Under the pieces are notes generated by a model that worked only from the letters and a program-made list of their open reading frames with translations, was not told the origin of the DNA and made no database searches. From contig CAVQUB010000001.1 of NCBI GenBank assembly GCA_963716725.1, positions 225,901 through 289,900 of the forward strand: a stretch of 64,000 nt of DNA, given 5' to 3'. Shown piece by piece: positions 989-63,911 of the stretch (the first letter of the stretch is position 1; each line of letters begins with the position of its first letter). Made by a program: the position numbers and the translations under genes. This DNA comes from an uncultured delta proteobacterium. GTDB lineage: Bacteria > Myxococcota_A > Polyangia > Polyangiales > Polyangiaceae.

Positions 989-1037
989 GCCAGGTGCGGC
1001 AGCTAAGCAGGCTCGGGGCGCGGCGACAACGCAGCGC

Positions 1038-2120: not shown

Positions 2121-2133
2121 ATTAGGTGACGCC

Positions 2134-2817: not shown

Positions 2818-2938
2818 ATTCGTCGTGAGGTCCGTTTCTAAACGGAACCTCGCCCTCCGGTCCGGCTTATTGGCCAAAGGCGCCACCCGAGTCAAGGCCC
2901 GCCGGCCGAATCGGCGGAGCCTCTGAAATGTCCGGCGT

Positions 2939-3939: not shown

Positions 3940-3984
3940 GCCGGGGAGCCTAGAGCATTTCGTTTGCGGGATCACGGGGTCGCG

Positions 3985-5622: not shown

Positions 5623-5663
5623 GCCGCGGCGCTAATATCACGAGCGAGCCAGTCCGGCACGCC

Positions 5664-7568: not shown

Positions 7569-7699
7569 TCGGTTGGCGCCCTGCCAACCGGGTTGACGCT
7601 CGCGGTCCCAGGACTTCGGGAATTTGGCCGCGTATTGCGCGGTACGGGCCTTGCTCTAATGATGCTCGGCGATGGTCTGGGCTCGACCCGAAACCGCGA

Positions 7700-7729
7700 T
7701 TGACAGCAATCCTCCCGCGCACTTACGCT
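7700..7729 (+). promoter_or_regulatory. Candidate sigma70-type promoter for the 7833 gene
   Basis: TTGACA-18 bp-TACGCT in the intergenic region. Confidence 0.4.
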
Positions 7730-7832
7730 GCGAGCGCTGGCCATTTTCGGCTGGCTGGCGGTCAGTCCCTTCCCTGGGACTACCCACCGGGCTGTTTGGA
7801 TCTCGCCGGTCCGGTCCTGAAGGAGCAATTCG

Positions 7833-10250
7833 ATGAGTCTCGATATCAAAAAGGATGACTCGCTGGTCACGCGCTGGGTGCGCATGGGCCTGGCAGGCCT
7901 CGGCCTGGTCTCAGCCGTCGCGGCTTCTGCCGTGGGCTGCCTCGATCGGCCGGTGTCGCCCGCCTCGCCGAACACGACCAACGTGTTCGTGCAGGACATC
8001 CGCCAGACCACCATCGACAAGATCGATCTGCTCTTCATGATCGACAACTCGATCTCGATGGCAGACAAGCAGCTGATCCTCGCGGACGCAGTGCCGCAGC
8101 TGCTCAACCGCTTGATCACTCCGCAGATCGTGGACGGCAAGCCCGAATTCAAGGCCGTCGTCGACATCCACATCGGCATCGTGTCTTCGAGCTTGGGCGG
8201 TCACGGCGGTGACCAGTGCTCCGAGGGCGGGCCGAACTCGAACCCGACCCAGTACGACAACGGGCGGCTGATCGGCAGCGTGCGTCCGACCGCGAGCCTG
8301 CAGAGCTACAACAACTTGGGCTTCCTCTGGTGGGACGCGGCCACCCCGCAGAAGGGCAGCCCTCCGGGTGAGAACAACCCCGGCAGCATGGAGGCCAACT
8401 TCACCGCCCACGTGAAGGCCACCGGCGAGAACGGCTGCGGCTACGAGGCCTCCCTCGAGTCCTGGTACCGCTTCCTGGTCGATCCGGCGCCTCCGGCCAA
8501 GATGGTCGTCGAGAACAACAACGCCGTGTCGACGGGCGTGGACGACGTGGTGCTCCAGCAGCGCCGAGACTTCCTCCGGCCGGACTCCCTGGTCGCGGTC
8601 ATCATGCTCACCGACGAGAACGACTGCTCGATCATCGACGGCGGCTTCAACTGGTACGCCGCCCAGACCAGCAACCCGAACAACACGCCCTTCTTGCTGC
8701 CGCGCGCCACCTCGACCTGCGCCACCGATCCGAACAGCCCCTGCTGCCGCTCGTGTGCGACCCAAGAGGGAGCTCCGCCGTCGGGCTGCCAGGCCCTGGG
8801 CAGCGACTCCGAGTGCACGCAGAACAGCGGCTTCTGGACCGACGTCGACGATCACCCGAACCTGCGCTGCTTCGAGCAAAAGAAGCGCTTCGGCATCGAC
8901 TTCCTCTACCCGACCCGGCGCTACGTCGAGGCCCTCACCCAGCCGCGCATCTGCCCGTACTGGGACGCCAACGGCCCGGTGAACTGCCAGTTCGACGACC
9001 CGAACCAGGGCAACTACCGCGCCTGCAACCCGCTCTACGTCAAAGATCTCAACAACCCGACCGAGTGCGAGACGGGCACGCGCGATCCCGCGCTGGTCTA
9101 CCTGGCGGGCATCGTCGGAGTGCCGTGGCAGGACATCGCGACGGACGAGACGCTCAACGACCCCACCAAGCTCGACTACCTCTCGTCCACCGAGCTCGCC
9201 GAGAAGAACCGCTGGGACTGGCTGGTGCCCAAGTGCGAGAAGCAGGCCACCGACAAGATGCCCCGGCCGATCTCCGTCTGCGACAAGTGGGACCTGAAGG
9301 ATCAGCCCGACGACGCCCTCATGATCGAGTCGAGCGATCCGCGGACCGGCAACAACCCGGCCCTCAACATCGCCCTGGCGGACCCAGCGGCGGGCCCCCT
9401 GGCCAACGCCATCAACGGCCACGAGTGGCTGACTTCGAAGGGCGATCTCCAGTACGCCTGTATCTTCAAGCTGCCGCAGGCCAAGGACTGCGCCACGGCC
9501 AGCGGCGGCTGCGACTGCGACGACGTGGCCTCGGGCTACACCGCCAATAACCCCCTGTGCCAGGGCGGCGGCGGCTACACCAAGCTCCAAGAGTACGCCA
9601 AGGCCTTCCCGGGCACCCGTATGCTGCAGGTGCTCAAGGACTACGGCGACAACAGCATCGTCGCCAGCATCTGCCCCAAGGTCACGGACTCGAAGGCCAA
9701 CCCGAGCTACGGCTACAACCCGGCAGTCTCCGCCATCATCGAGCGCCTGAAAGAGGTGCTCAGCGGCCAGTGCGTCAACCGTCCCATCGCGTTCCCGCCC
9801 GGGCCCGACGGCAAGCCGGATCCCAACGCCATCCCGCAGTGCGCGGTGGTGGAGGTTCAGGCGAACTCGGGCGGCTGCCAGGCCTGCGACCCGACGCTCA
9901 ACCGCTCGGAGGTCGATCCCGATCTGATCAAGCCGGTGATCAACCGCCTGAAGGAGACGGGTCAGTGCACGGGCGCCGGCTGCACCGCGGCCAGCTACTG
10001 CATGTGCGAGATCAACTTCGTGGCGGACGCCGCGAAGGACGACTGCCTGAACAATGACCCGACTCAGGCCTCGACCGTGGGCTGGTGCTACATCGACCCG
10101 GCCCAGGGCATTGGCAACCCGAAGCTGGTCGAGAGCTGCAATCCCGCGCGGCAGCTGCGCTTCGTGGGCGCGAACACGCCGACCTCTGGGTCCACGGTGT
10201 TCATCGCCTGCCTGGGTGCGCCCATCGCGGCGGCTGCCCCGACGCCCTGA
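7833..10250 (+). CDS. Large Cys-rich lipoprotein with a VWA-like MIDAS motif (myxobacterial surface protein)
   Basis: Lipobox AVGC, DLLFMIDNSISM (DxSxS), LTDEND, many Cys and strong GC3 bias. Confidence 0.8.
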   Translation: MSLDIKKDDSLVTRWVRMGLAGLGLVSAVAASAVGCLDRPVSPASPNTTNVFVQDIRQTTIDKIDLLFMIDNSISMADKQLILADAVPQLLNRLITPQIVDGKPEFKAVVDIHIGIVSSSLGGHGGDQCSEGGPNSNPTQYDNGRLIGSVRPTASLQSYNNLGFLWWDAATPQKGSPPGENNPGSMEANFTAHVKATGENGCGYEASLESWYRFLVDPAPPAKMVVENNNAVSTGVDDVVLQQRRDFLRPDSLVAVIMLTDENDCSIIDGGFNWYAAQTSNPNNTPFLLPRATSTCATDPNSPCCRSCATQEGAPPSGCQALGSDSECTQNSGFWTDVDDHPNLRCFEQKKRFGIDFLYPTRRYVEALTQPRICPYWDANGPVNCQFDDPNQGNYRACNPLYVKDLNNPTECETGTRDPALVYLAGIVGVPWQDIATDETLNDPTKLDYLSSTELAEKNRWDWLVPKCEKQATDKMPRPISVCDKWDLKDQPDDALMIESSDPRTGNNPALNIALADPAAGPLANAINGHEWLTSKGDLQYACIFKLPQAKDCATASGGCDCDDVASGYTANNPLCQGGGGYTKLQEYAKAFPGTRMLQVLKDYGDNSIVASICPKVTDSKANPSYGYNPAVSAIIERLKEVLSGQCVNRPIAFPPGPDGKPDPNAIPQCAVVEVQANSGGCQACDPTLNRSEVDPDLIKPVINRLKETGQCTGAGCTAASYCMCEINFVADAAKDDCLNNDPTQASTVGWCYIDPAQGIGNPKLVESCNPARQLRFVGANTPTSGSTVFIACLGAPIAAAAPTP

Positions 10251-10345
10251 ACCACCGAACAGTGCGCCGCGCGGGGAGTCGTTCCTCGCGCGGCACGTCG
10301 GTGGGTTGAGTCTCCGCGCCCGCCGACTACGATGGCCCGAGACGG

Positions 10346-11038
10346 ATGGAGGCCAAGAAGACCATCCTCGTCATCGACGACGAGCCGCACATCCTGCTCG
10401 GGCTGCGCGACGCGCTTACCTTCGAGGGCTATCGGGTGGTCACGGCGACCAACGGCAAAGAAGGCCTAGCGCTCTCCCGCGCCGAGCGACCCAACGTGGT
10501 GCTGCTCGATCTGATGCTGCCGGACATGAACGGCTATCAGATCTGCGAAGAGCTGCGGCGCCAGGACGCCTTCGTCCCGGTCATCATGCTCACGGCCAAG
10601 AGCCAGGAGGCCGACAAGATCCGCGGCCTCGACGCCGGCGCGGACGACTACGTCACCAAGCCCTTCAGCGTGGGTGAGCTGGTGGCCCGCATTCGGGCCT
10701 TGTTCCGGCGCACGGCGCGGCCCATCGAGAACAACAGCTTCACGATCGGCGACGTGACGGTCAGCGTCTCGGCCCACACCGTGCAGCGCACGGGCAAGAA
10801 GGCCGCTGAGGCCCTCAGCTTCTACGAGGTCGAGCTGCTCAGGCTGCTGCACGAGCGGGCCGGCACGCCGGTGAGCCGCGAGGAGATCTTGAACAAGATC
10901 TGGGGCGTCGACGCGAACCCGACCAACCGCACCATCGACAACTTTATCGTGAAGCTGCGCCGCAAGGTCGAGAAGCGCCCGGACCGGCCCGAGCACATCC
11001 TCACGGTCTACGGCTTCGGCTACAAACTGGTGCCCTGA
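10346..11038 (+). CDS. OmpR-family response regulator
   Basis: Receiver domain (VIDDE, LLDLMLP, GADDYVTKPF) and winged helix (NRTIDNFIVKLRRK, TVYGFGY). Confidence 0.95.
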   Translation: MEAKKTILVIDDEPHILLGLRDALTFEGYRVVTATNGKEGLALSRAERPNVVLLDLMLPDMNGYQICEELRRQDAFVPVIMLTAKSQEADKIRGLDAGADDYVTKPFSVGELVARIRALFRRTARPIENNSFTIGDVTVSVSAHTVQRTGKKAAEALSFYEVELLRLLHERAGTPVSREEILNKIWGVDANPTNRTIDNFIVKLRRKVEKRPDRPEHILTVYGFGYKLVP

Positions 11039-11054
11039 GCCCCGGCCGCGTCGA

Positions 11055-11355
11055 AGAGGCGCGGGGGACGCGGGGAACGCGGGGAACGCAGGAAGAGATA
11101 TTTTGGGTTCGGAAGGAGAGGGGCGAGTCGGGCCGGATCCGAACCCGAAAATCTCTGTGTGCTCTGCGTGCTCTGCGTACGCCGCGCCTTTGGCCGGGGG
11201 CGTTCACGAGGGAGAGGCGCGGGGGACGCGGGGAACGCGGGGAACGCAGGAAGAGATATTTTGGGTTCGGAAGGAGAGGGGCGAGTCGGGCCGGATCCGA
11301 ACCCGAAAATCTCTGTGTGCTCTGCGTGCTCTGCGTACGCCGCGCCTTTGGCCGG
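11055..11355. repeat. Two identical 143-bp palindromic units (11055-11197 and 11213-11355), REP/MITE-like
   Basis: Direct repeat with 158-bp period between convergent genes. Each unit has the internal inverted repeat agagatattttgggttcgga ... tccgaacccgaaaatctct. Confidence 0.9.
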
Positions 11356-11364
11356 ATCGCGCGC

Positions 11365-12217
11365 TCAGGGGTGGGCGGAGAGTGGCATCACGTTGCGCGG
11401 ATCGCAGGCAACCGTGCGCGCGTTCTTGGTCAGCTCGCCCGACGCCAACGAGGCGAGGTTGATCCCGTCGCGCACGCGCCGCACCTCGAGGTGAAGGTGC
11501 ACGTCGCCCGGGCTCCCGCTGTCGCCGACGAAGCCGAGCAGGGCGCCCTCGCGCACGTTCATGCCGCGGCTCAGTCCCGGCGCGGGTCCCTGCAGGTGTC
11601 CATAGAGGACAACGTATTCGCGGAGGCGGTCGCCCTCGCGCACCGTGTGGCGAGTCACCACCGAGTTGCCGAACACCTCGCCGACGAAGAGCACCTCGGC
11701 CTCCGCGGTCTGATGCTCCAGGTCCACCAGGCGCACCTCGGCTCCGCGACGCTGACCCAGGTCGAGGCCGCCGTGACCCACGGCCTTGATGTGCGCGCCG
11801 CGGCGCTGTTGCACGTCGGGACGATCCGAGATCGTAGCCGCTCACGACCAGGTTCTGCCCCGGCAGCGGCGGCACGGGCCAGCGGTAGCGTCGGTAGTCG
11901 CTGGGCCGCTCGGGGCGCCGGGGGATCTGATCGTAGAGCCGCCACGCGCCGCTGCGGTCACGGTGCAGGTTCTGCTCCTGAGTCAGTTCGGCGCCGCCGG
12001 TCGGGTCTCGCGGAACGGGGATGCAGACCCCCTGGTCGGGCAAGGTGCCCGGTGGGCAGGCGCTCGACAGCGCAGGCGACCCGGCGGGCGCGCTAGCCGC
12101 GCCAGCCGCAGTGACTCCGAAGGCCGGCGCGCTGACCAGAGGACGCCCACCTTCGGCCGCGTGGGAGAGGGCGGCGACGGCGGCGAGCAGGGCCGTCGCC
12201 TGGGTCAGCGGCTGCAT
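11365..12217 (-). pseudogene. M23 family metallopeptidase, frameshifted near 11828 (possible sequencing error)
   Basis: The signal-peptide half (ORF from 12217) joins the M23 motifs HGGLD, LYGHL and GDSGSPGDVHLHLE if one base is removed (..GYDL DRPDVQQRR..). Confidence 0.75.
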
Positions 12218-12316
12218 GTCGGGAGCATAACCGAGGAAGGCTCAGGGCCATTCCGTCCCGATTTCCGCCCCGCCGTGCTGGAACGTTTGCCTTCAGTCCC
12301 CCGGGTTTGATAGCGG

Positions 12317-13142
12317 ATGGGCGTGACGTTCCCTTCGGGTGAGCTCAGCCCGGCCGACTCGGCGGTGATGGAAGACCTTCGTGGTCCCGCGCTATCTGTC
12401 CTTCTACGGCGAGCTGGCCCTGGAGCTCGTGCTGGCCGGCGAGGGTGCGCGCATCGTGCACATTGGCTGCCGCACCGGCTACCCCGATCGCCAGCTCTGC
12501 GAGCTGGCAGCGCAGGCCGAGATTGTCAGCCTCGACGCGTCGCCGGCGGCCCTCGACCTCGCCAAGGGCAAGCTGGGTCCAGATGCGAGCCTGCCCATCG
12601 AGTACCTGCTGGCCAACGAGCTGCCCACCGGTCTCGATGCGGGCAGCTTCAGCCACGCTCTGTGTCTGCACCCGCTGGGATCGACACAGGAGCGGGCCGC
12701 GCTCTACCGGGAGATGTACCGCCTCTTGTGCGACGAAGGGCAGGCGTTGATCGCGTTGCCGCTGCGCGGGTCATTTCAAGAGGTCGGTGATCTGTTCCGC
12801 GAGTACGCGCTCAAGCACGACGACGGCGATCTCGGCAAGACCGTCGAAGAAGCCATGGCCACTCGCCACAGCATCGAGACCCTCTCGGAGGAAATCGAAG
12901 CGAGCGGTCTCGACGACGTGGACATCGAGGTGCGCTCCGTCACGCTCACCTTCGACAGTGGCCGCGCCTTCGTGGATGATCCCGTGACACGCCTCCTCAT
13001 CTTGCCCGAGCTCGCCGCCGCGCTGGGCGGCGTCGACCTGGAAAAGCCCCTGGCCTACTGCCGCGACGCCATCGACAAATACTGGTCCGAGGGCCAGTTC
13101 GAGCTGACGGTCAACGTCGGCTGCGCTAGTGCCCGGAAGTGA
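12317..13142 (+). CDS. Class I SAM-dependent methyltransferase-like protein; apparent +1 frameshift near 12374
   Basis: VHIGCRTG and SLDASPAAL motifs. The frame from ATG 12317 joins the main frame (ETFVVPRY) if one base is removed. Confidence 0.7.
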
Positions 13143-43206: not shown

Positions 43207-43347
43207 CCTCGAACGCCCCCCTCATCGAAGAAGGCTCCGCGAACGCAGAGCACGCGGAGCACGCAAGGAAGAGAAATTTGGTTCCAGTCGCGAGCCGCGG
43301 CGCAGCGGTGAGTCAATACCCTCTAGCCATCGCAGATCAGAATCGCC

Positions 43348-43581
43348 CTCCGGCCGCTGCTCGCCTCGCGAGCCAGGCTCCGGCCGCTGCTCGCCTCGCG
43401 AGCCAGGCTCCGGCCGCTGCTCGCCTCGCGAGCCAGGCTCCGGCCGCTGCTCGCCTCGCGAGCCAGGCTCCGGCCGCTGCTCGCCTCGCGAGCCAGGCTC
43501 CGGCCGCTGCTCGCCTCGCGAGCCAGGCTCTCCCTCTGCCTCTGCCTCTGCCTCCGGCCGCCGCTCGCCTCGCGAGCCAGG
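43348..43581. repeat. 30-bp VNTR: six perfect units (43348-43527) plus a degenerate seventh
   Basis: The unit ctccggccgctgctcgcctcgcgagccagg repeats head-to-tail with no spacers. Confidence 0.95.
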
Positions 43582-43857
43582 CTCTCCCTCTCCCGGCCGG
43601 CCAGGCTCTGCGTCGAGCCGCTGCTTGCAGCGGCGAGACTGGAACACCGGTCCCAGTCCGAAGCCCGATCAGATCACGATCCGCCCGAGTAGCCACAACG
43701 CCCAAGGTGCCCGGCGGAGCGGGCGCCTGGCTCCTCTCAGCCCGCGACAGTCGCAAGACCTCCCCCCGCAAGACCCAACGCAAAATACAAAACCCAAGAG
43801 CGGCCCGCCGGGGCGTTCCCACCCACCACAGTAGCCCGGCGCCCCACGGAGGCCAGA

Positions 43858-47568: not shown

Positions 47569-47707
47569 TCGGCTTCGAGCAGTATTTGGCAACGTAACAG
47601 CGGACGACTAGGCGAAAGAAAGACGAAGGCTCCACCAGGGGAGGCAGGCCCCGGAGCTCGAGTCGAAATGACACAGCGGCGATTACCGCGCCGGGAGGAT
47701 GAGGAAG

Positions 47708-49006
47708 ATGACGTTCTCGATCGAGTTTGCCGACGAGACCCAAGCGTACCAGGCCCGTATCAAGGTGATCGGGGTGGGCGGTTCGGGCGGCAACGCAGTC
47801 AACACGATGATTCACTTCGGCCTCGAGGGGGTGGAGTTCATCAGCGTGAACACCGACGCCCAGGCCTTGGGCAGCAACGCCGCAGCGCAGAAGATCTCCA
47901 TCGGAGCGAACCTGACGCGCGGCCTCGGCGCGGGCGCCAATCCGGAGCGGGGCCGCAAGGCGGCGCTCGAGGACGTCAACCGCCTCAAGGAGGTGCTCGA
48001 GGGCGCCGACATGGTGTTCGTCACCGCCGGCATGGGCGGCGGCACCGGCACCGGCGCGGCGCCGATCATCGCGCAGGTCGCCAAGGAGCTCGGCGCGCTG
48101 ACGGTGGGCGTCGTCACCAAGCCCTTCGTCTTCGAGGGCAAGAAGCGGGCGCGCCAGGCCGAGTCCGGCATCGCCGCGCTCAACGAGCACGTCGACACGC
48201 TGATCACCATCCCGAACGAGAAGCTGATGACGCTCGCCGACGAGGAGCTCACCTTCGTCGACGCCTTCCGCAAGGCCGACGAGGTGCTGTTCCAGGCCGT
48301 GAAGGGCATCAGCGATCTGATCACCCAGGACGGCATCGTCAACGTCGACTTCGCCGACGTGCGCACGGTGATGAACAACATGGGCCGCGCGCTCATGGGC
48401 ACCGGCTGCGCCAAGGGCGAGGGCCGCGCGCGCCTGGCGGCGGAGCACGCCATCATGTCGCCGCTGCTCGACAACATCAGCGTCGAGGGCGCGACCGGCG
48501 TCCTGATCAACATCGTCGGCGGCTCCGACATGAAGATGCGGGAAATCCAGGAGGCCGCCAGCTTGATCCAGGAGCAGGCCCACGAGGACGCCAACATCAT
48601 CTTCGGCGCCAGCATCGACGAGAGCATGGGCGAGGCCATCAAGGTGACGGTCATCGCCACCGGCTTCGACCGCGCCGATGCGGACATCCCCGTCGAGATC
48701 TCCGCGCCGGCCCGGGTGGTCGCGACCGCGCCCTCGCGCCGTGACTCGGCCCGCGACGCCCTGCGCGAGGGTTTCGCCAGCGCGCCCCCGTCCCGCGCCT
48801 CGCTCTCGCGCCCCGCCCTCGATCGCGATCTGGTCCCGGCCATGAGCACGCGCCGCCCGGCTGCCCTCGCCGCGAGCCTGCAAGCGCAGAACGCCCCGAA
48901 CTCGAGCGCGGGTCCCGAGGTCCGTTCCCGCATCAGCTTCCCCGCGTCTCTCGACGCGGACGCGGACTGGGACACGCCTGCGTTCCAGCGTCGCGGCGGC
49001 GGCTGA
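47708..49006 (+). CDS. ftsZ: Cell division protein FtsZ
   Basis: [23 protein letters not shown] and the C-terminal peptide DTPAFQRR. Confidence 0.98.
48941..49006 (+). repeat. ftsZ 3'-end repeat, copy 1 (native gene end)
   Basis: The 48-bp core gacgcggactgg...ggcggctga is identical at 53358-53405 and 60594-60641. Confidence 0.95.
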
Positions 49007-49036
49007 AGTCGCCTCCTTGCCCGTTCGGTATGTCGA

Positions 49037-49069
49037 ACCCCCTCGTCTCGCAAGAGGCGGGGGGGGGGT
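49037..49069. terminator. GC-rich hairpin after ftsZ (GCAA loop); terminator-like or att arm
   Basis: accccctcgtctc-gcaa-gaggcggggg lies between convergent genes and has no U-tract. A near copy occurs at 53450-53476. Confidence 0.6.
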
Positions 49070-49195
49070 GGTGCGCCCAGCGCTACCCAAGGGGCTCCGC
49101 GGAACGAAACCAGAGCGGGTTGGGCTGCGGGCTCGCGGGGCGCACAGACCTGGGATTGGACGAGGCGCTTGGCACGCACGAACTCGCCCGCTACG

Positions 49196-49825
49196 TCAGT
49201 TGCCGCTCGTCCCGGGCGGCGGATCCGGAACGAACACGTACTGCTCATTGGCAACTACGATCTGGGGGGTAGTGGCGCGTTGGATCGTCCCAGTCAGGCG
49301 GACGGGGGTTTCCTTGGGGAATGGACAAACACGTTCGCAGTTGTTTTGGCAGTCAAAGTCATGGCACAGATACTTGTTGAGCGTCTGCGGGTCCATGATG
49401 ATGAGCGAGCTCGCGTTGCCTTCGCAGGCCGGCATCCCGACAGTGCCAGGCGGCACGAAGACCGCACGACCCGTGCATCCGGTGCAACTCCCGCACTTAA
49501 TCATCTTGCAGGTGATGGGTGCGTCGCACGACACCACCCAACCGGCGGTGGTGACTCGCTTTCCGAAGTAGGCCGCGGCCTCCACGATCAAGCGCTCGAT
49601 TGACACTTCCTCGGGGCTCTCTGGAGCGCTCGTCGCGTCATTGACGCCCCCATCGGACGCTCGGACGCCCGCTTCCGGCAGTCCGGGGTTGCCGGGTTCG
49701 GCCCGAGGCGTCGCAACGCCTTGGGATTGACCTGACGGCGCGCGACAGGTCACCGCCATCGCGGCGCCGAGCGTGGCCAAGCAGACGCTACGCGTCGCGG
49801 CCGAGAAAGCACCTCGGATGCTCAT
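49196..49825 (-). CDS. Small Cys-rich putative lipoprotein (module 1)
   Basis: Hydrophobic N-terminus ending AVTC and many Cys; starts 5 bp after the protease stop. Confidence 0.65.
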   Translation of the reverse strand: MSIRGAFSAATRSVCLATLGAAMAVTCRAPSGQSQGVATPRAEPGNPGLPEAGVRASDGGVNDATSAPESPEEVSIERLIVEAAAYFGKRVTTAGWVVSCDAPITCKMIKCGSCTGCTGRAVFVPPGTVGMPACEGNASSLIIMDPQTLNKYLCHDFDCQNNCERVCPFPKETPVRLTGTIQRATTPQIVVANEQYVFVPDPPPGTSGN

Positions 49826-49830
49826 CGCCG

Positions 49831-52800
49831 TCAGAGCCCGAGGAGCTGTTGGGTGGGCTGGGGCTTCGAGGACTGCTTTCCGCTCGCGGCCGGCGCTGCG
49901 GGCGCTGCGGGCGCGGTGGTCTTGAAGAACGTGACCTCCGCGGCGTTGATGGCCCGCAGAAGAGCCAAGAGGTCATCCGCGTGAGCTGAGTCCGCCGCGG
50001 TCCATGTGCACGCGCCCCGGCCGACAAGTAGAGCTCCCGCGCTTGCAATGACGTCAGCGACCGAGCTGTCGCGCGTATACACGAACGCACCCGCCAGATC
50101 TTCGCCGGCCGCAGCTCGCGCGACGACGTTGATCTGGCCAGCCAACAACTCGGCGTAAAGGTCGGCCATCACTCGCGCTGGGCCGATGGTGTCGCCGTGG
50201 GCTAGATGCGCCGGCAGTGCGGGAGCCCCGACGACGAGCAGCTTGGTTTTGGTACCCTGCTTGCCTGGCGGCAGATGGCACACGGCCGCGTGCGAGCCGT
50301 TCGCGCCGCCAAGCTCGGGAGCGGTGCCACTGAGCATGGCCGTTGCCCCCGATGCTGATGCCACCGAAATGCCACCAACGGTGATCGGCAAGAACGAACT
50401 CACGTCAGCCGAGATCCACTGATCGACGGGGACCGCTCCGCTCGGGCTGAGCCGCCGGGTGGGCTGGCCGAAGACCTCGTATGTGACCGGAGAGCCCACC
50501 GGGGCCCAAATGCGGACGTTGTTCTGGACGCGAAGGTTCTGCCATCGCCATTCCCACGCGCCAGGCACACCCTGGACCGTGACCTTCAACTGCTCCTCGT
50601 CGAAGACCGTCACCCCGTCGTTGTTTCCCGATGGGTTCGTGTTGGTGAGGACGACCGCCCCCGAGGGGTTCCGCACGTCGTAGCGAAGATCTGCGCTGGC
50701 GCCGGTGGCGACGCCGTTGGACTTCACATCCAGCGGCCCGCGTTGGCCCACGACCGCAGGATCGTCGTCCACCAGGATGTCAGCGTCGGCATCTCGGAGC
50801 GTCATCGAAACCGACGCGGTCCCGACATCCACGAAGAACCGAAATACTCCGTCGTACTTGGTGTCCAGCATCGCGGTGTCGGCGAGCGGACCCACGGCGA
50901 AGGGGCCGGCGAGATCGCGCGCGATGAACGCGAAGTCATTGGCGATCGTGCTGACTTGACCCGTAGCGCGCACCTTGAAGCTGTTGGTGAGCCCGGCGGT
51001 GACCGGAATGACGGGCTGCCCGCAGGCCGCCTGGGTCAGGTACACGTCGAGAATGTAGAAATGCGCCCCGCTTCCGCTCGCAGTACCGAAGACCGGTCCA
51101 GCGTATATCTTTCCCCAGGACGCGTCGGGCAGCGCAGCGTCCTCGACCACCGTGGCCGGTAGCAGCGTTTCGGGGGTGGCCTTGTCCTTGGAGCTGTAGA
51201 GCTCGTAGCACGTGCGGGTGCCGGCGTTGTTGCCGGTGTCGTACAGGCTTCCAAGCGTCTGGTCACCGTCGAAGACCTGAACGGTGACGGCGCTTTGGCC
51301 GGCGGGTACGCCGATGAGAAAACGAGTGCGCTGATTGGGTACGGTTGCGAAAGGTTGCCCCGTCACCGTCACGAATCGGCCATCGTCGCCGTCTGCTGAC
51401 GGGAAGCCCGAGAGCGGCACGCCTTTGTTGACGGGTCCGTTCGCACCACCGAAGTACAAGTCTCGCGTCCCGTCCTCTCTGATCAGCTCCAGATCGATGA
51501 AGCCGTCCTTGTCGGCGTCCCCGGTCGAGTACTCGACGTAGGTCCCGACGAGCAGGGGGAAGACGGAGCCGCCCAGATTCACATCGAAGAAGATGGCCTG
51601 CGCCCCAGCGACCACGACGAAATCTTCAACGCCGTCGTTGTCGAAGTCGCCCAGCGGAACGAACGAGAACTTGTCCGCCTGCTGCTGTGAGACGGGGAGC
51701 AGAGTGTCGAACGACACAAGGAACGCACCATCGATGTAGATGTTGATCCACAGCGTGCCTTGGTCCTCGAAGAACGCCAGGAAGTCGTCGCGGATCCCGT
51801 CCAGGTCGTAGTCATAGGCGACGGGCAGCCATTTCCGCGGAAGCTGCTTCAGGTCGAGGCCGACCGAACGATGGTCGCCGCTGCCCGGGCACGTCGGCGC
51901 GCCTTGCCCGGTTGGAAAACAGTCCTGCGTGCAGCCACCGGGGCCGAGCACCTCTTTCGGCCCAGAGATGACCATTCCGAGCGCCGCCCCGGAGGGCGTC
52001 AGCACCGGAGCGCCACTGGACCCAGGCAGCAGATCGGCCTCGACGGTGAACGTTCCGGGTCCCCCGCCGTTCACCAGCACTTGGCCGACGCTCGCAATGT
52101 TGACCTGATTGTCGAGCTTGAGTGGAAGGCCCAAGTTGTGCGTCCAAACGAGGTTGTTCTGCGAGGGCGCGACCGGCGCACTAGCTGGGAACAGCGGTTC
52201 GCGGGCGGCCGTCAGCGGGCCGCCGGTGCCGGTGCCGCCGCTCACCGGACGATCCACTCGGAAGACCACCCAATCGTTGGGCAGCCCGCTGGTCGTGGGC
52301 AGCGCGACCGGACCGTGATCGAGAACCGCATCGCAGAAGTAGATGTGGCGTGAAAAATGTTCGGGTTTCCGTCGGGAAAGCTCGAGCCGCTCGTGCGCCA
52401 CCGCATCACCACCGACCGCTCCGCGCATTCTTGATTCCAGCCGTTCCATGGAAACACCAGATCGGTCATGCAGTGCGCGGCGGTCGCGAATCGATCAGGT
52501 CCGATCATGAACGCCGTGCACGGCGCGGTTGGCAGGACGCGCTCGGAGCTGAAGAACTCCCCGCGCAGAGCCCCGATGGCGTCGTGGACATGATCCAGGT
52601 GCAATCGGTGGCCGTCGGAGGTACGGGACAGTTGAAGGCCGTCGAGTTCAGCTGGGATCGGTTCGCCATCAGCCCGACCGCGGTGCCGTATTCCTGGTGA
52701 GCCAGGGTCGACACGTTCTCGAAGTTCTTCAGGTTTGCATTGCCCCAGATCACCTCGGAGGCGGTGTTCGAGCGCGGACTCTCCATCGGCCCGTCAGGTG

Positions 52801-52930
52801 ATGAGCACGCCGTGGGTGCGACGAAGGCCAGCAGGGCGAGCAGCGCTATCGCCGCGCGGCGTGCCCCCTGCGAGGCTCGTGCCAACCTCGATACGAATGC
52901 AGTCCGCCAGCCGTCTCGTCCTTGCGCCAT
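49831..52930 (-). pseudogene. Trypsin-like (S1) serine protease lipoprotein of about 1030 aa, split by two single-base deletions (possible sequencing errors)
   Basis: RBS GGAGG and lipobox PTAC are in frame 1, TAAHC in frame 2, and NDWVVF plus PGSSGAP in frame 3. The frames join by adding one G (~52560) and one T (~52355) to short homopolymers. FG-GAP-like DxDxDG motifs follow. Confidence 0.8.
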
Positions 52931-53126
52931 CATCCACCTCCCGCGCAGCCAACGCCCCAGAGCTGAATCAACACGAAGGAGGTCGGGGTCGTCAAGGTAC
53001 GAATCAGCGCACACGCACACGCGCACGCCGACCTCGCCGACCTCGCGGCGTGCCCGGCTGCGCCCAGAAGCCCTGCGACAGTAGGTGGCGCCAGCGGCGA
53101 CGGGTTCTCTCTCGCGCGCCGTGCAT

Positions 53127-53339
53127 GCGCAGCGCTCGCCGACAAACCCGAACGTACGCACCTTCCCCTGCCGCGCGCAGCAAACTGCGCGCGCGACGCG
53201 CAGCGCGCTTCTTGTTCGTACCGCGAGGCGCGGGCTGCGAGCACGGCTTTGGGGAAGGTCGCGCGGCCGGAGACAGCGCGAGGCAGTGGGTCGCTCGCGC
53301 CGAACCTCGATCGAGGACGCGCGGGTTGGGGCAACAACA
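53127..53339. repeat. Conserved non-coding arm, copy 1, with a large imperfect hairpin at 53161-53258
   Basis: Homologous to 58235-58362 joined to 60500-60584. Nested inverted repeats ccttcccc/ggggaagg, gccg/cggc and gcagc/gctgc. Confidence 0.9.
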
Positions 53340-53405
53340 CCTGCGTCGCTCGACGCCGACGCGGACTGGGACACGCCTGCGTTCCAGCGTCGCGGCGGCG
53401 GCTGA
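53340..53405 (+). repeat. ftsZ 3'-end repeat, copy 2
   Basis: 66 bp matching the ftsZ end, with three synonymous differences. Confidence 0.95.
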
Positions 53406-53449
53406 GCCTCCGCCACGTCCGCTTTCGATTCCTCCGTCTGGTATGTCGA

Positions 53450-53476
53450 ACCCCTCGTCTCGAAAGAGGCGGGGGT
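53450..53476. terminator. GC-rich hairpin (GAAA loop), homolog of 49037-49069
   Basis: acccctcgtctc-gaaa-gaggcgggggt, preceded by the shared ggtatgtcga. Confidence 0.6.
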
Positions 53477-55963: not shown

Positions 55964-58078
<2,115 letters not shown>

Positions 58079-58234: not shown

Positions 58235-58362
58235 GCGCAGCGCTCGCCGACAAACCCGCGCGCACGCACCTTCCCCTGCCGCGCGCAGCAGACTGCGCGA
58301 GCGCCGTGCAGCGCGGTCCCTGTTCGCGCCGCGAGGCGCGGTCTGCGAGCACGGCTTTGGGG
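58235..58362. repeat. Conserved arm, copy 2, 5' part (intron 5' exon)
   Basis: Aligns without gaps to 53127-53254. Confidence 0.9.
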
Positions 58363-60499
58363 TCGCGCCCGGCATGGGCGCAGAACAGAAGGTGAGAACC
58401 AGTACTCGATGAGAATTGATTCAAGTCCTTTGAGGGCCCTGACAGAGGGAACCTCTCACCGAAGGCAAGGGCGTCGGCTCGGAGCACCGAGCTTCACGCT
58501 TGCGGTTGTGAGCCGCGGTGTGCCCGCGAGGGGACGTCTGGTGGAAGCCGTAGGTGCAACACGGAACCGAGCGCAAGCGAAGCGCCGTAAGGCATACGTA
58601 CCGTGGGTGAGCCGGTCTCCAGCGGCGAAGCCCGAAGTCTGTTGGTCGGTCGGGTGTAGTGGCGACGGGATTCGTGTGAAGTTCTGCGTTTCTTACCCGG
58701 GGAGATCTGTCGGCCTCCGTGCGATGAGCACGGTAGCAGTCGAGGACGAAAGGACGAGACGATGACGGGACGAGAGAAGTCGGATGGTCGCGTAGTACCG
58801 GAAGGTCGTCGAAAGGCGCACCGAGCCGACGAGGGTCGGGAAGGGAAGGCGGTCACGGCCAGCAAACAGGTAGAGCAGCTCGCTCTGTTCGACGAGACAG
58901 CCGAAAGCCCGAAAGGGGCCGCGGTCGGACGAACGTCGGGCCCACCCGGCGGGAAACGACTCGCGGTGCCGAAGTCGTCGCAGGGAACGAGCAACGCCCT
59001 ATCGCCGATGACGATGGAGGAGATAGCCAACGATGCAAACCTGAGACGGGCGTTTCAGAAGGTCGCAGCAAATCGCGGCGCCCCTGGACCCGACCGGCAG
59101 ACGATCGGAGAGGTGCGAAAGAACCTCGAAGATTGTTTGGCCGCGCTCGGGCGGAGCTTGCTGGACGGGAGCTATCGAGCCGGGGATGTCCGGCGCGTGT
59201 GGATCCCCAAGGCGAGTGGAGGTCAGCGAGGACTTGGCATCCCGAACGTGATCGACCGGATCGTGCAGCAGGCGGTGCACCAAGTGCTCAGCCCGCATTA
59301 CGAGACGACCTTTCACGATTGGAGCCACGGTTTTCGCCCGGGTCGTGGAGCCCACACGGCCATCAAACGAGCCAAGATGCATCTGGGAGCCGGCAACGAC
59401 TGGGTCGTGGACATCGATTTGGAGAAGTTCTTCGACCAAGTGAACCACGATCGACTGATGTCGCGGCTGGAGCAGCGCATCGCGGATCGCCGCGTGCTCT
59501 CGCTGATCCGACGGATGCTGAAGGCCAAGGTGGTGATGCCGGACGGAGTGGTGGTAGCGACGGACGGCGGGACTCCGCAAGGGGGCCCACTGTCGCCGCT
59601 GCTCAGCAACATCGTGCTCGACGAGCTCGACCGTGAGCTCGAAGCGAGAGGGCATCGATTCGTGAGGTACGCAGACGATTGCAATGTCTACGTACGGAGC
59701 GAGCGTGCCGGGCAACGTGTGATGGCGAGTCTCGAGCGCTTCATCGAGAAGCGCTTGCGGCTCAGGGTCAACAAGGAGAAGAGCAAGGTGGCGAAGCCAC
59801 AGACGCGGTCTTTTCTCGGACTGACGCTACATCGGCTGAAGTCTGGGCCAGTCCGCGTCCTGGTGGCGGAGTCGTCCTGGGAGCGTCTTCGGCAACGGCT
59901 GAAGGAGCTTACGCCGCGCAACTGGGGGCAGTCGTTCGACGAGTGCATCCAGCGCGTGAACGTCTATCTCCGCGGTTGGCTCGGCTACTTCGCGATCTGC
60001 GATGGGAAGCATCACCCTCGAATGGACCGTGTCGACGGTCATCTCCGCCGTCGCCTGCGCGCTCTTCTGCTGAAGCAGTGGAAGCGCAAGCGGCACATCG
60101 TGAACCGATTGATGCAAATGGGAGTGCCGGCTCCACTCGTGCACGTCGATGTACATGCACGAAGACGGAGCTGGTGGGCGCTCAGCAAGGTCCGCGCCGT
60201 TTCTCGGGGGCTCAACAACGAGTACTTCGAGCGACGCGGCCTCTTTGCGCTGCACGCTCACTGGCGTGGCAACCACGAGCGCATTTGGCACATCGGCTTC
60301 CCGCCGCCGGTGCGGCAGGGAAGATGAGCTGAGGCGCAAGCTGATGATGGAAGAGGACCCGCCCCGGGCTACGCGAGCCATGAGGTCTCGTGAAGAACAC
60401 GGCCGTCGCCAACGCCATCGTCCCGAAGAGCCGGATGTGAGGCCCACAAGTCCGGTTCTGTGAGAGGGGCCCCCGGGCAACCGGGGGTCCCTACTCGGC
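58363..60499 (+). mobile_element. Group II intron (IIC-like) with RT/maturase ORF
   Basis: Starts ..cgcccggcatggg, contains ttcttacccggggagatctg, DV gagccggatgtgaggcccacaagtccggttc and DVI with a bulged A at 60493. Ends are defined by the intron-free paralogous site gggg|aagg at 53254/53255. Confidence 0.92.
59008..60327 (+). CDS. ltrA: Group II intron reverse transcriptase/maturase without an endonuclease domain
   Basis: RRVWIPK, LGIPNVIDR, SHGFRPGR, GTPQGGPLSPLL, RYADD and domain X (LRGWLGYF). The in-frame upstream start at 58762 overlaps ribozyme domains II-III. Confidence 0.93.
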   Translation: MTMEEIANDANLRRAFQKVAANRGAPGPDRQTIGEVRKNLEDCLAALGRSLLDGSYRAGDVRRVWIPKASGGQRGLGIPNVIDRIVQQAVHQVLSPHYETTFHDWSHGFRPGRGAHTAIKRAKMHLGAGNDWVVDIDLEKFFDQVNHDRLMSRLEQRIADRRVLSLIRRMLKAKVVMPDGVVVATDGGTPQGGPLSPLLSNIVLDELDRELEARGHRFVRYADDCNVYVRSERAGQRVMASLERFIEKRLRLRVNKEKSKVAKPQTRSFLGLTLHRLKSGPVRVLVAESSWERLRQRLKELTPRNWGQSFDECIQRVNVYLRGWLGYFAICDGKHHPRMDRVDGHLRRRLRALLLKQWKRKRHIVNRLMQMGVPAPLVHVDVHARRRSWWALSKVRAVSRGLNNEYFERRGLFALHAHWRGNHERIWHIGFPPPVRQGR

Positions 60500-60641
60500 A
60501 AGGTCGCGCGGCCGGAGACAGTGCGCGGCAGTGAGTTGTTCGCGACGAACCTCGATCGAGGACGCGCGGGTTGGGGCAACAACCCTCGACGCCGACGCGG
60601 ACTGGGACACGCCTGCGTTCCAGCGTCGCGGCGGCGGCTGA
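60500..60641 (+). repeat. Conserved arm copy 2, 3' part (60500-60584), plus ftsZ 3'-end copy 3 (60585-60641)
   Basis: Matches 53255-53405 with a 9-bp deletion. Confidence 0.95.
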
Positions 60642-60888
60642 AGTTTCCTCCTCGCCTGCCCCCTCTGTCGGCAGCCAGCGGAAACCGCGGAATTCTGAGC
60701 AGCCCGAACTGACGGCGTAGTTGGCCCCGGTGTGGCAGGCCGCCGACGATCTCGGGCCGCCCACCAAAGAGTAGGGCTCGGAGTCACAACACTCCGAGCC
60801 CCGGGCCGCCGCGAGTGGACGCGTTCGACATGACCGTTGTCGCACGAGTCCTCCGGGGTGGCCGAGTTTCCGGTGGTCGCACTCGCGA

Positions 60889-61527: not shown

Positions 61528-61591
61528 TCTCGCTGGCGTCGGCCCGTTCGGTGACCTGCGCCAGCTCGTGCTGTTCGAGGTGGCGCGATGA
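61223..61591 (+). CDS. IS21-associated hypothetical protein
   Basis: Globular 122-aa ORF with RBS AAGGA; stop overlaps the istA start (ATGA). Confidence 0.6.
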   Translation: MTDIWMGIAPERHATRVIAMAGPGETILKARLSPSPVHPRAMATLLEAVALWQGTRVRAALAAAEQGEGSDSSLFREAFTDGGPLYTVDWVPACRARRRHRDLAGVGPFGDLRQLVLFEVAR

Positions 61592-63132
61592 TCCCCGAGG
61601 AGCTGCGTTCGCGCATCCGACGGCTGTTCTTCGCCGAGCACTGGAAGATCGGCACCATCGCGGCCGAGCTCGGCGTGCACCACGATGCCGTCGAGCACGC
61701 GCTCGAGCCAAAGCAATTCATCAACAAGCGCTGGGCCGCTACGGCGGCGGCGCTCGACGCCTACAAGCCGTTCGTCAAGCTCACGCTCGACCAGTACCCG
61801 CGTCTGCGCGCCACGCGCCTGCTCGAGATGATCCAGGACCGGGGCTACACCGGCAGCGTCAGCGCGCTGCGCCGCTACGTGCGCAAGGTGCGGCCCGTCT
61901 CGCGCCACGAGGCATTCTTCCGGCTGTCGGTCCTGCCCGGCGAGCAGGCGCAGGTCGACTGGGGCTCGTTTGGCAAGATCCGGGTGGGCCGCGGCGAGCG
62001 CTTCCTGTCCTGCTTCGTGATGGTGCTGGCATGGTCGCGAGCGACGTTTGCGCGCTTCACACTGGACCAGACGCTCGAGAGCTTCGTCCGCTGTCATGTC
62101 GAGGGATTCGAGCGTCTCGGCGGCGTGCCGCGCACCGTGCTCTACGACAACTTGAAAAGCGTCGTGCTCGAGCGACAAGGCGACCTCATCCGCTTCCATC
62201 CGAGGATCCTGGAGCTGGCCGGCCACTACCACTTCGCGCCCAAGCCCGTCGCGATCGCACGCGGCAACGAGAAGCCGCGGGTCGAGCGCCGGATCCGCGA
62301 CCTGCGCGAGTCCTTCTTTGCCGCTCGCGGTTTCGCCTCGCTCGACGACCTCAACCGGCAGCTGGACGAGTGGATCCAGCGGATCGTGCACGCGCGCCGC
62401 GTCCCCGGCGAGGACGAGCTCACGGTCGCGCAGGCGCTGACCCTCGAGCGGGAGCGACTGCTGGCGTTGCCCGGGCACCGCTTCACCGCCGACCTCGTGC
62501 AACCCGTCGCGTCCGGCAAGACGCCGTACGTGCGCTTCGACCGAAACGACTACTCGATCCCCCACACGCTCGTTCGGAAGCCGCTGACGCTCGCGGCCTC
62601 CGAGACCACGGTGCGCATTCTCGACGGGGATCGCGAGGTCGCTCGCCACGAGCGCAGCTGGGACCGCCGCGCGCAGATCGAGTGCGAAACGCACCTCGCG
62701 GCGCTCGCCGCCGAGAAGCGCAAGGCCCGCGACCACCGCGGCCGCAATCGGCTGTCCGCGGCGTGCGCCAACGCGACCCCGTTTCTCGGCGCCGTCGCAC
62801 TCCACGGCGGACACCTCGGCGGCACCACCAGCCGGCTGCTCCGCCTGCTCGATCAGTACGGCGCCGTCGAGCTGGATGCCGCCCTGCACGAGGCTCACCA
62901 GCGCGGCGCGTTCGCGGCGCACTCGGTGGCTCACGTGCTCGACCAGCGGCGGCGCGTTCGCGGCGCTCCCGTGCCGCTCGACGTCGTGCTGCCGGCCGAT
63001 CCACGGGTGCGCGACCTCGTGCTCACGCCCCACTCGCTCGACACCTACGACCGCATCGGACGCACCACTCCCACGCGGATCGACGACGACAGCGCGCCAA
63101 CAAACAACCCCAACGAAAGGGACCCGTCATGA
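61588..63132 (+). CDS. istA: IS21 transposase
   Basis: HTH, PGEQAQVDWG, LYDNLK and EKPRVER (DDE) motifs. Confidence 0.95.
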   Translation: MIPEELRSRIRRLFFAEHWKIGTIAAELGVHHDAVEHALEPKQFINKRWAATAAALDAYKPFVKLTLDQYPRLRATRLLEMIQDRGYTGSVSALRRYVRKVRPVSRHEAFFRLSVLPGEQAQVDWGSFGKIRVGRGERFLSCFVMVLAWSRATFARFTLDQTLESFVRCHVEGFERLGGVPRTVLYDNLKSVVLERQGDLIRFHPRILELAGHYHFAPKPVAIARGNEKPRVERRIRDLRESFFAARGFASLDDLNRQLDEWIQRIVHARRVPGEDELTVAQALTLERERLLALPGHRFTADLVQPVASGKTPYVRFDRNDYSIPHTLVRKPLTLAASETTVRILDGDREVARHERSWDRRAQIECETHLAALAAEKRKARDHRGRNRLSAACANATPFLGAVALHGGHLGGTTSRLLRLLDQYGAVELDAALHEAHQRGAFAAHSVAHVLDQRRRVRGAPVPLDVVLPADPRVRDLVLTPHSLDTYDRIGRTTPTRIDDDSAPTNNPNERDPS

Positions 63133-63911
63133 CCGACCTCGCTACGCACATGCGCAGCCTCGGACTCCTCGCCACGGCCGCCGCGCTCGCCGACATCGTC
63201 GCGCTCGCGACCAAGAAGCGCTGGGGTGCCACCGAGCTGCTCGAGCACATCGCGGACATCGAGGAGAAGGACCGCGCGGTGCGCGGCCTCGCCAGACGCA
63301 AGAAGCGCTCCAAGCTCGAACGCTTCAAACTGATGGCCGACTTCGACTGGAACTGGCCCGAGAAGATCGAGCGCTCCCTGGTCGAGTCGGTTCTGCGCCT
63401 CGACTTCATCTCCGAGGCGCGCAACGTCGTGCTGGTTGCGCCCCAAGGCCTCGGCAAGACCATGATCGTCCAGAACATCGCGCACCAGGCGATCCTCGCC
63501 GGACACGGCGTGCTCTTCATCACCGCCGCCCAGCTCCTGCTCGACCTTGGAGCGCAGGAGTCGTCGCGAGCACTCGATCGGCGGCTGCGCTACTACGCGC
63601 AGATCGGACTGTTGATCATCGACGAAATCGGATTTCTAGCATTCGACAACCGGAACGCCGACCTGCTGTTCCAGGTCGTCAGCCGCCGCTACGAGAAGAA
63701 GAGCCTGGTGCTCACCACCAATCTCCTCTTTCGCGACTGGCACACCATCTTCCCCAACGCCACCTGCGCCACCGCGCTCATCGATCGTGTCGTCCACCAC
63801 GCCGACGTGATCAGCATCGAGGGCAAGAGCTACCGGGTCCGTGACGCCGAAGTCGACGCCAAGGCCCGGGCCGCCAAGCTGCCGAAAGGCGGTGCGCCGA
63901 AGAAGGCATGA
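63129..63911 (+). CDS. istB: IS21 helper ATPase
   Basis: DFDW, Walker A QGLGKT, LIIDEIG, TTN, DRVVHH and GKSYR motifs. Confidence 0.95.
   Translation: MTDLATHMRSLGLLATAAALADIVALATKKRWGATELLEHIADIEEKDRAVRGLARRKKRSKLERFKLMADFDWNWPEKIERSLVESVLRLDFISEARNVVLVAPQGLGKTMIVQNIAHQAILAGHGVLFITAAQLLLDLGAQESSRALDRRLRYYAQIGLLIIDEIGFLAFDNRNADLLFQVVSRRYEKKSLVLTTNLLFRDWHTIFPNATCATALIDRVVHHADVISIEGKSYRVRDAEVDAKARAAKLPKGGAPKKA

Follow-up and report, generated by a model that had tools for sequence, protein, structure and literature searches.

The window analyzed here is a 64-kb stretch of DNA at the end of contig C1 of genome G000 (7.9 Mb, 35 contigs). On its forward strand, at 58363-60499, it carries a full-length group II intron of the class C (IIC) type, inserted between GGGG and AAGG at the base of a long hairpin. 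We consider it fairly probable that this is an intact, probably mobile IIC intron in the sense strand of a conserved two-hairpin repeat, that it interrupts the base of the first hairpin (P1), and that the repeat is its preferred but not exclusive home. Two kinds of hairpins, terminators and integron attC sites, are known as homing targets of IIC introns. By analogy with the introns that target attC sites (IIC-attC introns), the window intron may belong to a IIC lineage with a preferred structured target of its own, and such a third, sequence-defined target would show that the tuning of exon-binding site 1 (EBS1, 4-6 nt) to a conserved hairpin base arose more than once. The intron also flags an uncharacterized element with 18 invariant nucleotides across genera and many environmental contigs, a structure supported by covariation and a precise position at the 3' ends of genes.

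The limits of the intron were read from a repeat with two arms. A repeat search paired 53127-53254 with 58235-58362 (90% identity) and 53252-53338 with 60497-60583 (92% identity). The first arm (copy B, 53127-53434) is continuous and the second (copy C) is split; since both halves of copy C match copy B, the intervening 2137 nt (58363-60499, forward strand) are an insertion between GGGG (58359-58362) and AAGG (60500-60503). An earlier note on this DNA had described an intron that splits gggg|aagg in a hairpin of about 98 nt which is intact in a paralog, and the comparison of the arms confirms both the coordinates and the description, with P1 of the paralog running uninterrupted from 53160 to 53259. 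The whole paralogous element (P1, a second hairpin P2, and a tail; 53157-53337, forward strand) matches the full length of R1, our covariance model of the element (68.8 bits, E 7.8e-10), and folds with the basal stem ACCTTCCCC/GGGGAAGGT; its empty intron site lies between 53254 and 53255. In the occupied element, the 5' exon (58268-58362, forward strand) comprises P1 up to the insertion point, with the 5' strand ACCTTCCCC at 58268-58276 and the intron-binding site 1 (IBS1), (UU)GGGG, ending at 58362 (R1 match at 58273-58362, 33.6 bits, E 0.0012). In the 3' exon (60500-60582, forward strand), the closing AAGGT (5 nt) of the P1 basal stem is followed by P2 and the tail GGGTTGGGGCAAC (60568-60580). 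This exon is 92% identical to 53252-53338 and gives a weak R1 match (60490-60582, 17.8 bits, E 0.7). With the exons joined in silico, the occupied element matches a separate hidden Markov model (HMM) of the element with E 5.9e-15. The insertion divides the 9-bp basal helix into 4 bp upstream of the intron and 5 bp downstream.

The intron begins with UCGCG and ends with CUACUCGGC, its bounds being given by the empty paralog and by an empty ortholog. The segment of ribozyme domains I-IV (58520-58690, forward strand) matches Rfam family RF02001 (group-II-D1D4-3) over model positions 1-170 of 170 with 78.9 bits (gathering score 32). Domains V and VI (60426-60499, forward strand) match RF00029 end to end with 38.6 bits (E 2.1e-5), 1.4 bits under its gathering score of 40, and this alignment puts the branch point at a bulged A (60493) that lies 6 nt upstream of the 3' splice site. 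An open reading frame (ORF) of 521 codons in domain IV (58762-60327, forward strand) encodes a reverse transcriptase (RT)/maturase, with RVT_1 at residues 148-356 (2.4e-43) and the maturase (X) domain GIIM at residues 374-448 (8.9e-15); a domain search at E<=0.001 found no HNH or other nuclease family in it. Among proteins of solved structure, the RT scores best against the GsI-IIC RT (2.4e-112 over residues 85-500), followed by three further group II RTs (1.2e-92 and about 4e-76), versus 1.2e-37 for LtrA (IIA) and 1.5e-30 for 6me0; the classes of these structures (IIC, IIA and IIB) are presumed, in part from the entry names. The similarity to the solved IIC RTs begins at about residue 84 and another intron copy, on contig C13, has GTG at codon 1; therefore, the true start of the ORF probably lies further inside the listed frame. 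A hairpin lies upstream of every intron junction that was read, including this one. Judged by the RT similarity, the absence of a detectable endonuclease domain, the Rfam match to domains I-IV and a short, covarying EBS1-IBS1 pairing, the intron is a class C intron, and the class proposed in the earlier note is borne out.

The hairpin itself is, on the evidence of covariation, stem P1 of a conserved element of two hairpins plus a tail and not a generic terminator. In an alignment of 19 P1 copies from 8 genomes, RNAalifold returned a 9-bp basal helix and a 15-pair inner helix. Of the aligned cells, 95.5% pair, versus 32-47% with slid 3' partners, and compensatory changes occur in 13 of the 24 pairs; these values were reached by none of 500 shuffles. 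The basal helix exists as ACCTTCCCC/GGGGAAGGT, ACTTCCCCC/GGGGGAAGT, ACCTCCCCC/GGGGGAGGT, GCCTTCCCC/GGGGAAGGC and GTCTTCCCC/GGGGAAGAC. A whole-element alignment of 19 metagenome copies likewise holds 26 pairs, 11 of them with compensatory changes. The pairing is thus conserved among homologs of the arm and is under selection, in agreement with the structured hairpin that had been suggested. P1 is laid out as RYCTTCCCC at the 5' side, an inner hairpin (often ...GCGCGCAGC, a variable part and GCGAGCAC...) and TTTGGGG AAGRY; P2 follows as a second hairpin between CG and CG, and then the tail AGTTGGGGCA. Minimal forms of the element measure about 77 nt, and the copies in the window bear long variable inserts.

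Databases and literature returned no counterpart. Rfam, run on the whole window at gathering threshold, returned only the intron, and on 16 element loci (E<=0.1) only a neighboring tRNA and chance matches. A full-text literature search with strings of the core sequence, together with literature listings, gave no paper on such an element. No aligned copy has a T run after P1, P2 or the tail (as read from the alignments; no terminator scan was run), and the element was rejected as an intrinsic (Rho-independent) terminator on this ground. The element is a widespread structured repeat with no assigned function, and it is not an integron attC site.

A profile of the P1 hairpin found seven copies in G000 and R1 at least 14 at E<=0.01, the latter number being a lower bound because 150 of the 22,846 first-look candidates were scored. 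BLAST with the arm yielded strong copies in three congeneric genomes and, in other genera, short matches of 92-100% identity to the 36 nt around the intron site; copies in other genera comprise three in G017 and others in G006 and G013. Many of the relatives' genomes are fragmented. In metagenome contigs, the exact 18-mer GCGAGCACGGCTTTGGGG occurs in at least 124 stretches. Among the 80 of these loci that were fetched, the conserved 5' block is present within 170 nt in 44, of which 39 also have the conserved tail. There is a sister subfamily with the same architecture (GTCCCCTCC...GGAGGGGAC, a second hairpin and the tail AGGGGAGGCAGGAA), with at least 20 copies by BLAST. It mostly forms co-oriented clusters (in G000, C1:139683-162784, C5:758837-767423, C34:143051-157348, C8:400508-408529 and others).

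Related introns occupy the same element elsewhere. Our junction set contains 15 intron 5' junctions, 14 reached from the intron and one (on metagenome contig L267) reached from the element. An R1 match abuts the junction at E<0.05 in six of them: G013-C114 (49.8 bits), G193a (48.1 bits), L267 (46.1 bits), the window copy on G000-C1 (33.6 bits, given above), G366 (26.7 bits) and G251 (25.9 bits). In G013, which belongs to another genus, in G366 and in L267, the intron follows the same GGGG of the element as in the window, and at two of the three G013 3' junctions the sequence runs on into AAGACCGCGCGGCC..., a homolog of the arm. The introns of G013 and L267 clearly differ in sequence from the window intron and therefore represent separate events. 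A second site is used in G193a, where the intron follows GAGTGGG of the element tail; a 5'-truncated intron copy on C20 is followed by GCAACAA, as the tail would read, and the G251 intron follows GCGAGCA, which matches its own EBS1. For comparison, we assembled 80 loci (among the matches listed) on genome contigs that carry a conserved 19-mer after the first two intron bases. These loci come from other phyla and surround canonical IIC 5' ends; R1 had no match at E<0.1 in any of the 80.

The match between intron and element can be followed to the exon-binding loop. From an alignment of the first 430 nt or so of ten intron relatives, EBS1 was located as CUCC(AG) at 58617-58622, in the stem-loop GCCGG-UCUCCAG-CGGC (58611-58626, forward strand). 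The loop covaries with the last 3-5 nt of its own 5' exon in six variants: CUCC with GGGG (both G000 copies, on C1 and C13, as well as G001 and G366) or GGAG (G368), CCCC with GGGG or UGGG (G193), UGCUC with GAGCA (G251), CCUC with GAGG (G054), CCCG with CGGG (G034) and CAA with UUG (G071). From this covariation, both the 5' splice site and IBS1 are established. If the two next loop bases are included, the pairing could reach 6 bp for UUGGGG, and the loop is complementary to the invariant TTGGGG of the element. Near-identical introns have either A or G at the start of their 3' exon, and a 5' intron fragment on C5 (37 nt, too short to hold the EBS1 loop) is preceded by GGAG. Since the EBS1 loops are complementary to the invariant core, the element family appears to be a preferred but not exclusive target, with a preference that would rest on EBS1 matching this core beside a stem-loop.

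Several points weigh against the reading of a preferred home. R1 recognizes no element at nine of the 15 junctions (C13, G001, G071, G193b, G368, G054, G034, G360 and the C5 fragment), and these include the nearest copy, on C13, and the 89% identical copy in G001. The L267 junction and the 5' junction in G013 were found by searching for the element, not for the intron, so they are not unbiased counts. Occupancy is low, at one of about 15 elements in G000 and one of the 44 family members among the fetched metagenome loci. Single-sequence folds give weak z-scores (-1.5 to -2.0), the non-canonical ends UCGCG...GC could impair splicing, and mobility, splicing and the role of the hairpin are all read from sequence. 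Joined exons matched the element HMM with E 0.0026 for G366, only 0.5-1 for G001 and C13, and not at all for G071, and an HMM built from seven G000 P1 copies had no match in the flanks of related introns. The latter result seemed to refute any specialization until the metagenome copies revealed a wider element family. At C13, G001 and G071, the site appears by eye as a long hairpin in which the intron splits the basal helix 5-7 nt short of its end (GTCGCCCCC...GGGG|GCGAC, GTCCCC...GGGG|GGGAC and GTGGCCC...TTTG|GGGCCAC), and the C13 5' exon has a 35-nt BLAST match to the sister subfamily. One reading is that these three sites are diverged members of the element, which draws on that 35-nt match and on the architecture seen by eye.

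These observations bear on a plainer explanation, doubtful in our view but the one to be taken most seriously among the rivals, namely that the intron is a generic IIC intron without specialization, for which any GC-rich stem-loop with GGGG or GGAG behind it would serve as insertion site. It would account for the sites of C13, G001, G193b and G071, which neither R1 nor the HMM recognizes, and for G054, G034 and G368, whose introns follow unrelated short hairpins or a tandem repeat. It also agrees with the canonical IIC loci from other phyla (65 of the 80 begin with GT), where those read follow ordinary terminator hairpins. However, diverged introns occupy the same nucleotide of the element in at least four genomes or contigs, and the EBS1 loops of the clade match the invariant core over up to 6 bp. 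About 15 elements in 7.9 Mb are, moreover, too few to be met by chance at 5-6 of 15 junctions, assuming that sites with a hairpin and GGGG are numerous. In a tree of 11 RT sequences without an outgroup (the G034 ORF is broken), the RTs from occupied sites fall into two groups with 55-59% mutual identity, G000/G001/G366 and G193/G071/G251, and the RTs of G054 and G034, which lie at other hairpins, branch beside the second group. The suggestion in the earlier note that the intron may specialize on the arm therefore holds in part. The occupancy of the same nucleotide in G013, G366 and L267, the second site in G193 and the complementarity of EBS1 to TTGGGG speak for it. The aligned flanks of the homologs tell half against it, with close (C13, G001, G193b, G071) and distant (G054, G034, G368) relatives at hairpins that were not recognized as the element.

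Shared occupancy could also stem from one ancient insertion that was inherited or copied along with its host element, by descent and duplication. In favor of this, a comparison by eye shows about 90% likeness over 300 nt between the two occupied 3' flanks in G013, which could have arisen by duplication of one occupied element, and the arms of the window are themselves segmental duplicates. Against this, the ortholog of the occupied arm in the congeneric genome G002 (G002:C3:2425050-2425223) is uninterrupted within a retained gene order (ftsZ, DUF2079 gene, trypsin-like peptidase gene, hairpin), which dates the insertion in the window to after the divergence of these species. Moreover, a second full copy of the window intron, at G000:C13:94664-96800, is 97.6% identical and has the same ends at a different site, while the introns of G013, L267 and G193 are strongly diverged and the G193a intron sits at the other site of the element. 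We regard a single ancient insertion as very improbable.

The preferred reading, a recently active intron with a structured target, also draws on the state of the copies. Besides the two full copies, G000 has two partial ones, a 3' piece of 700 nt on C20 and the 5' fragment of 37 nt on C5, and the copy in the congeneric G001 is 89% identical. The 521-codon frame and its YADD motif are intact in all three full-length copies, and the intron, as far as its sequence indicates, is intact and probably still mobile. The occupied locus was found letter for letter in one DNA read run, which probably represents the source sample. In two metatranscriptome runs of another study, intron pieces of at least 99% identity occur, for which DNA carry-over is possible; no exon-exon joint was seen in the RNA contigs of these two runs, for the parts with cover. 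The only contig that skips the intron (58362 to 60500) was considered as an empty allele and rejected. It carries 13 + 6 differences and the sequence upstream of the paralogous arm, and therefore represents arm B.

The ends of the intron are unusual. The consensus ends of group II introns are 5' GUGYG...AY 3', according to PMC7923331 and PMC4238363, whereas the window intron begins with UCGCG and ends with GGC. The termini UCGCG...GC recur in every copy of G000, G001, G193 and G366, and among the 80 comparison loci, 65 begin with GT, two with TT and none with TC. Both termini change together across the loci compared (58363-58367 and 60497-60499 of the window; L008, L206-L211, L009, L010 and L217). 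A 5' end of UCGCG or UUGCG is combined with a 3' end of ...CUCGGC (G000, G001, G366, G071, G013), and one of GUGCG or GAGCG with ...CUCGAU, GAC or GAG (G054, G251, G368). U1 thus appears to go with a penultimate G where the consensus has G1 with A. In PMC4238363, the first and penultimate intron nucleotides are described as interacting after lariat formation, and natural U1...G(n-1) ends would offer a ready-made test of this interaction.

Insertion may proceed as established for IIC introns (PMC4424553 and PMC7923331; passages of PMC3552965 gave nothing on intron targets). The intron ribonucleoprotein would reverse-splice into transiently single-stranded DNA, recognizing the stem-loop in place of IBS2 together with a short IBS1 and IBS3, and the RT would copy the intron using a replication primer; priming of the cDNA from the replication fork is presumed because the RT lacks an endonuclease. 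The P1 inner helix followed by GCTTTGGGG mimics the layout of a stem plus about 10 nt at ordinary IIC terminators. The inner helix ends 9-10 nt before the insertion point, and the corresponding gap is about 10-11 nt at the terminator sites of the canonical IIC loci, which were read and measured by eye. The outer 9-bp helix would have to open for IBS1 to pair.

As for its surroundings, the element usually lies, to judge from the called genes, tail-to-tail with the 3' end of a convergent gene or of a tRNA-Ser gene. In nine of the 11 G000 copies with a called downstream gene, this gene lies on the opposite strand with its end near the tail, and an opposite-strand tRNA-Ser gene abuts the tail in six of the 39 metagenome copies. 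A reading as 5' leader or riboswitch, suggested by the resemblance of the tail to GGAAG, was dropped because of these nine opposite-strand neighbors. Co-oriented arrays comprise three copies on C5, separated by an AbiEii toxin gene and an HTH gene, three copies after an Rhs/TNT toxin gene in G017, and three on G002:C2 among ordinary genes. Rhs/YD-repeat proteins, one of them with a TNT toxin domain, are encoded in L205 (G017:C103) at 284-5988 and in L003 (G000:C10) at 6727-12919; downstream of each gene, the same strand bears one to three element copies separated by small ORFs.

The sequence next to the element tails in the window is related to the end of ftsZ (47699-49006, forward strand; Tubulin/FtsZ and FtsZ_C domains). 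The last 65 nt or so of ftsZ plus its terminator (48941-49063) are duplicated after the tails, at 53340-53475 behind the empty element (forward strand; 81% identical to 48941-49063) and at 60585-60670 behind the occupied one (forward strand; 88% identical to 48950-49035). This sequence is present four times, including G000:C2:477029-477164, and three of the copies directly follow an element tail. The repeated arm of the earlier note is composite, made up of the element plus a duplicated ftsZ 3' end. Contig C2 ends 5 kb past its ftsZ-end copy and may continue from the contig end of the window across an IS21 copy. A 4.3-kb segment (49064-53340), which ends in the empty element and contains a trypsin-like peptidase gene (49831-52449, reverse strand; Pfam), is absent between ftsZ and the DUF2079 gene in G002, as seen by synteny comparison. 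Within it, 49172-53081 matches G000:C5:12524-16424 with 95.5% identity, and the counterpart on C5 has a copy of the sister subfamily on either side. In the segmental duplicates C5:12282-16424 and C2:476943-477246, homology is lost within about 10 nt of the intron site, and these breakpoints may mark a crossover point, intron-mediated recombination or chance.

A more ambitious explanation, which we think unlikely, is that the element is a new structured site (folded single-stranded DNA or RNA), for example a recombination or insertion site for cassettes at gene 3' ends such as those of ftsZ and tRNA-Ser, with which a IIC sub-radiation co-evolved, including its EBS1 and its U1...G(n-1) termini. 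If this were true, the breakpoints of the duplicates would mark the crossover point or recombination mediated by the intron, and the latter is the kind of recombination proposed for the genesis of cassettes by IIC-attC introns.

Elsewhere in the window, a perfect TCTG tetranucleotide run of about 11 units (58017-58060) lies just upstream of a reverse-strand trypsin-like peptidase ORF, and seven tandem copies of the 30-nt unit CTCCGGCCGCTGCTCGCCTCGCGAGCCAGG (43318-43641) lie upstream of a Mur ligase gene at 43858. Two identical 143-nt direct repeats are found at 11055-11197 and 11213-11355, 158 nt from start to start. An IS21-type pair (IstA-like rve transposase and IstB ATPase; 61588-63844) at the contig end probably explains the break in the assembly.

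Among known systems, integron attC sites were compared with the element, which could be an attC cluster without integrase, with the intron an ordinary IIC-attC member. The ends of P1 (RYCTTCC...GGAAGRY) share the purine/pyrimidine pattern of R''/R' (RYYYAAC...GTTRRRY) with a different inner triplet, and the co-oriented arrays hold toxin-antitoxin, Rhs-toxin and small ORFs between copies. G000 encodes a true integron integrase (C8:394020-395177; TIGR02249 443 bits, cut-off 265), and three copies of the sister subfamily lie 5-13 kb from this intI. The insertion point in the 3' basal strand also recalls that of IIC-attC introns, which lie in the bottom strand of the attC, at TTGT/T in R'' (PMC7923331). 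Yet the defining AAC/GTT triplets are absent: 19 genome copies and 28 metagenome copies have the P1 base RYCTTCCCC/GGGGAAGRY, and the intron junction is (TT)GGGG/A or G. P1 is invariably accompanied by P2 and the tail, which does not hold for the sequence behind an attC. In G001, G002 and G005, the 20-40 kb around intI yielded no element, and canonical attC repeats of about 175 nt (GCCTAAC...GTTAGGC) do occur 3' of intI in G000 and G002. The G000 array, outside the window at G000:C8:390700-395177 (locus L352, 720-5178), has four such repeats 0.5-0.8 kb apart, downstream and not upstream of intI, and G002 has the same layout with two repeats beside the integrase. They were recognized by synteny BLAST; regular-expression scans for canonical attC of up to 150 nt found no clusters, the true sites being longer than this limit. 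Short tandem repeats with units of 23, 22 and 9 nt adjoin the 5' end of intI in three congeneric genomes (L361 1332-1722, L362 1359-1500, L359 19453-19604). Given the missing triplets and the true attC sites beside intI elsewhere in the same genome, we rejected the element as an attC site, and hold the combined alternative of attC cluster and ordinary IIC-attC intron to be improbable. The notion that the arm is the recombination site of a cassette system is unproven, as the arm lacks the attC core triplets, true attC sites lie elsewhere and no recombinase is linked to it. What the element does share with attC sites is an imperfect hairpin of 60-180 nt, conserved only at its base and at a few unpaired positions and variable in its center, and the co-oriented arrays; its second hairpin and tail, always attached, set it apart.

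ERIC and REP/REPIN sequences are, like the element, imperfect palindromes of about 80-180 nt with a few to tens of intergenic copies per genome, conserved across genera. The two hairpin units of the element are, however, direct and not inverted, no flanked Y1 (RAYT) transposase was found, and the position of the element is precise, abutting either the stop codon of a gene that converges on it or the tRNA-Ser 3' end. A RAYT/REPIN reading was dropped, as G000 has two Y1_Tnp matches and the best R1 match near them scores 14.1 bits (E 0.076).

Terminator-targeting IIC introns (B.h.I1, GsI-IIC and O. iheyensis type) resemble the window intron in their RT (2.4e-112 to that of GsI-IIC), the same Rfam model for domains I-IV, an upstream stem-loop and a short EBS1-IBS1 pairing. 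To judge by eye from the 65 of 80 comparison loci that begin with GT, introns of this type target Rho-independent terminators that are unrelated and have a T run, whereas the introns described here have as target one conserved element without T run, and their ends are UCGCG...GC instead of GUGYG...AY. From the IIC-attC introns (S.ma.I2 type; PMC7923331 and PMC4424553), the window intron differs in a target without AAC/GTT, in an IBS1/IBS3 of (UU)GGGG/A or G versus TTGT/T, and in that no integrase is linked to it. Otherwise the likeness is close. Both are class C introns without an endonuclease domain, and in both a sub-lineage has a short IBS1/IBS3 that fits a conserved stretch where a long imperfect hairpin has its base. 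Insertion takes place, for both, in the 3' basal strand of that hairpin and not behind it, in antisense to the neighboring gene, and both keep the ability to use other hairpins.

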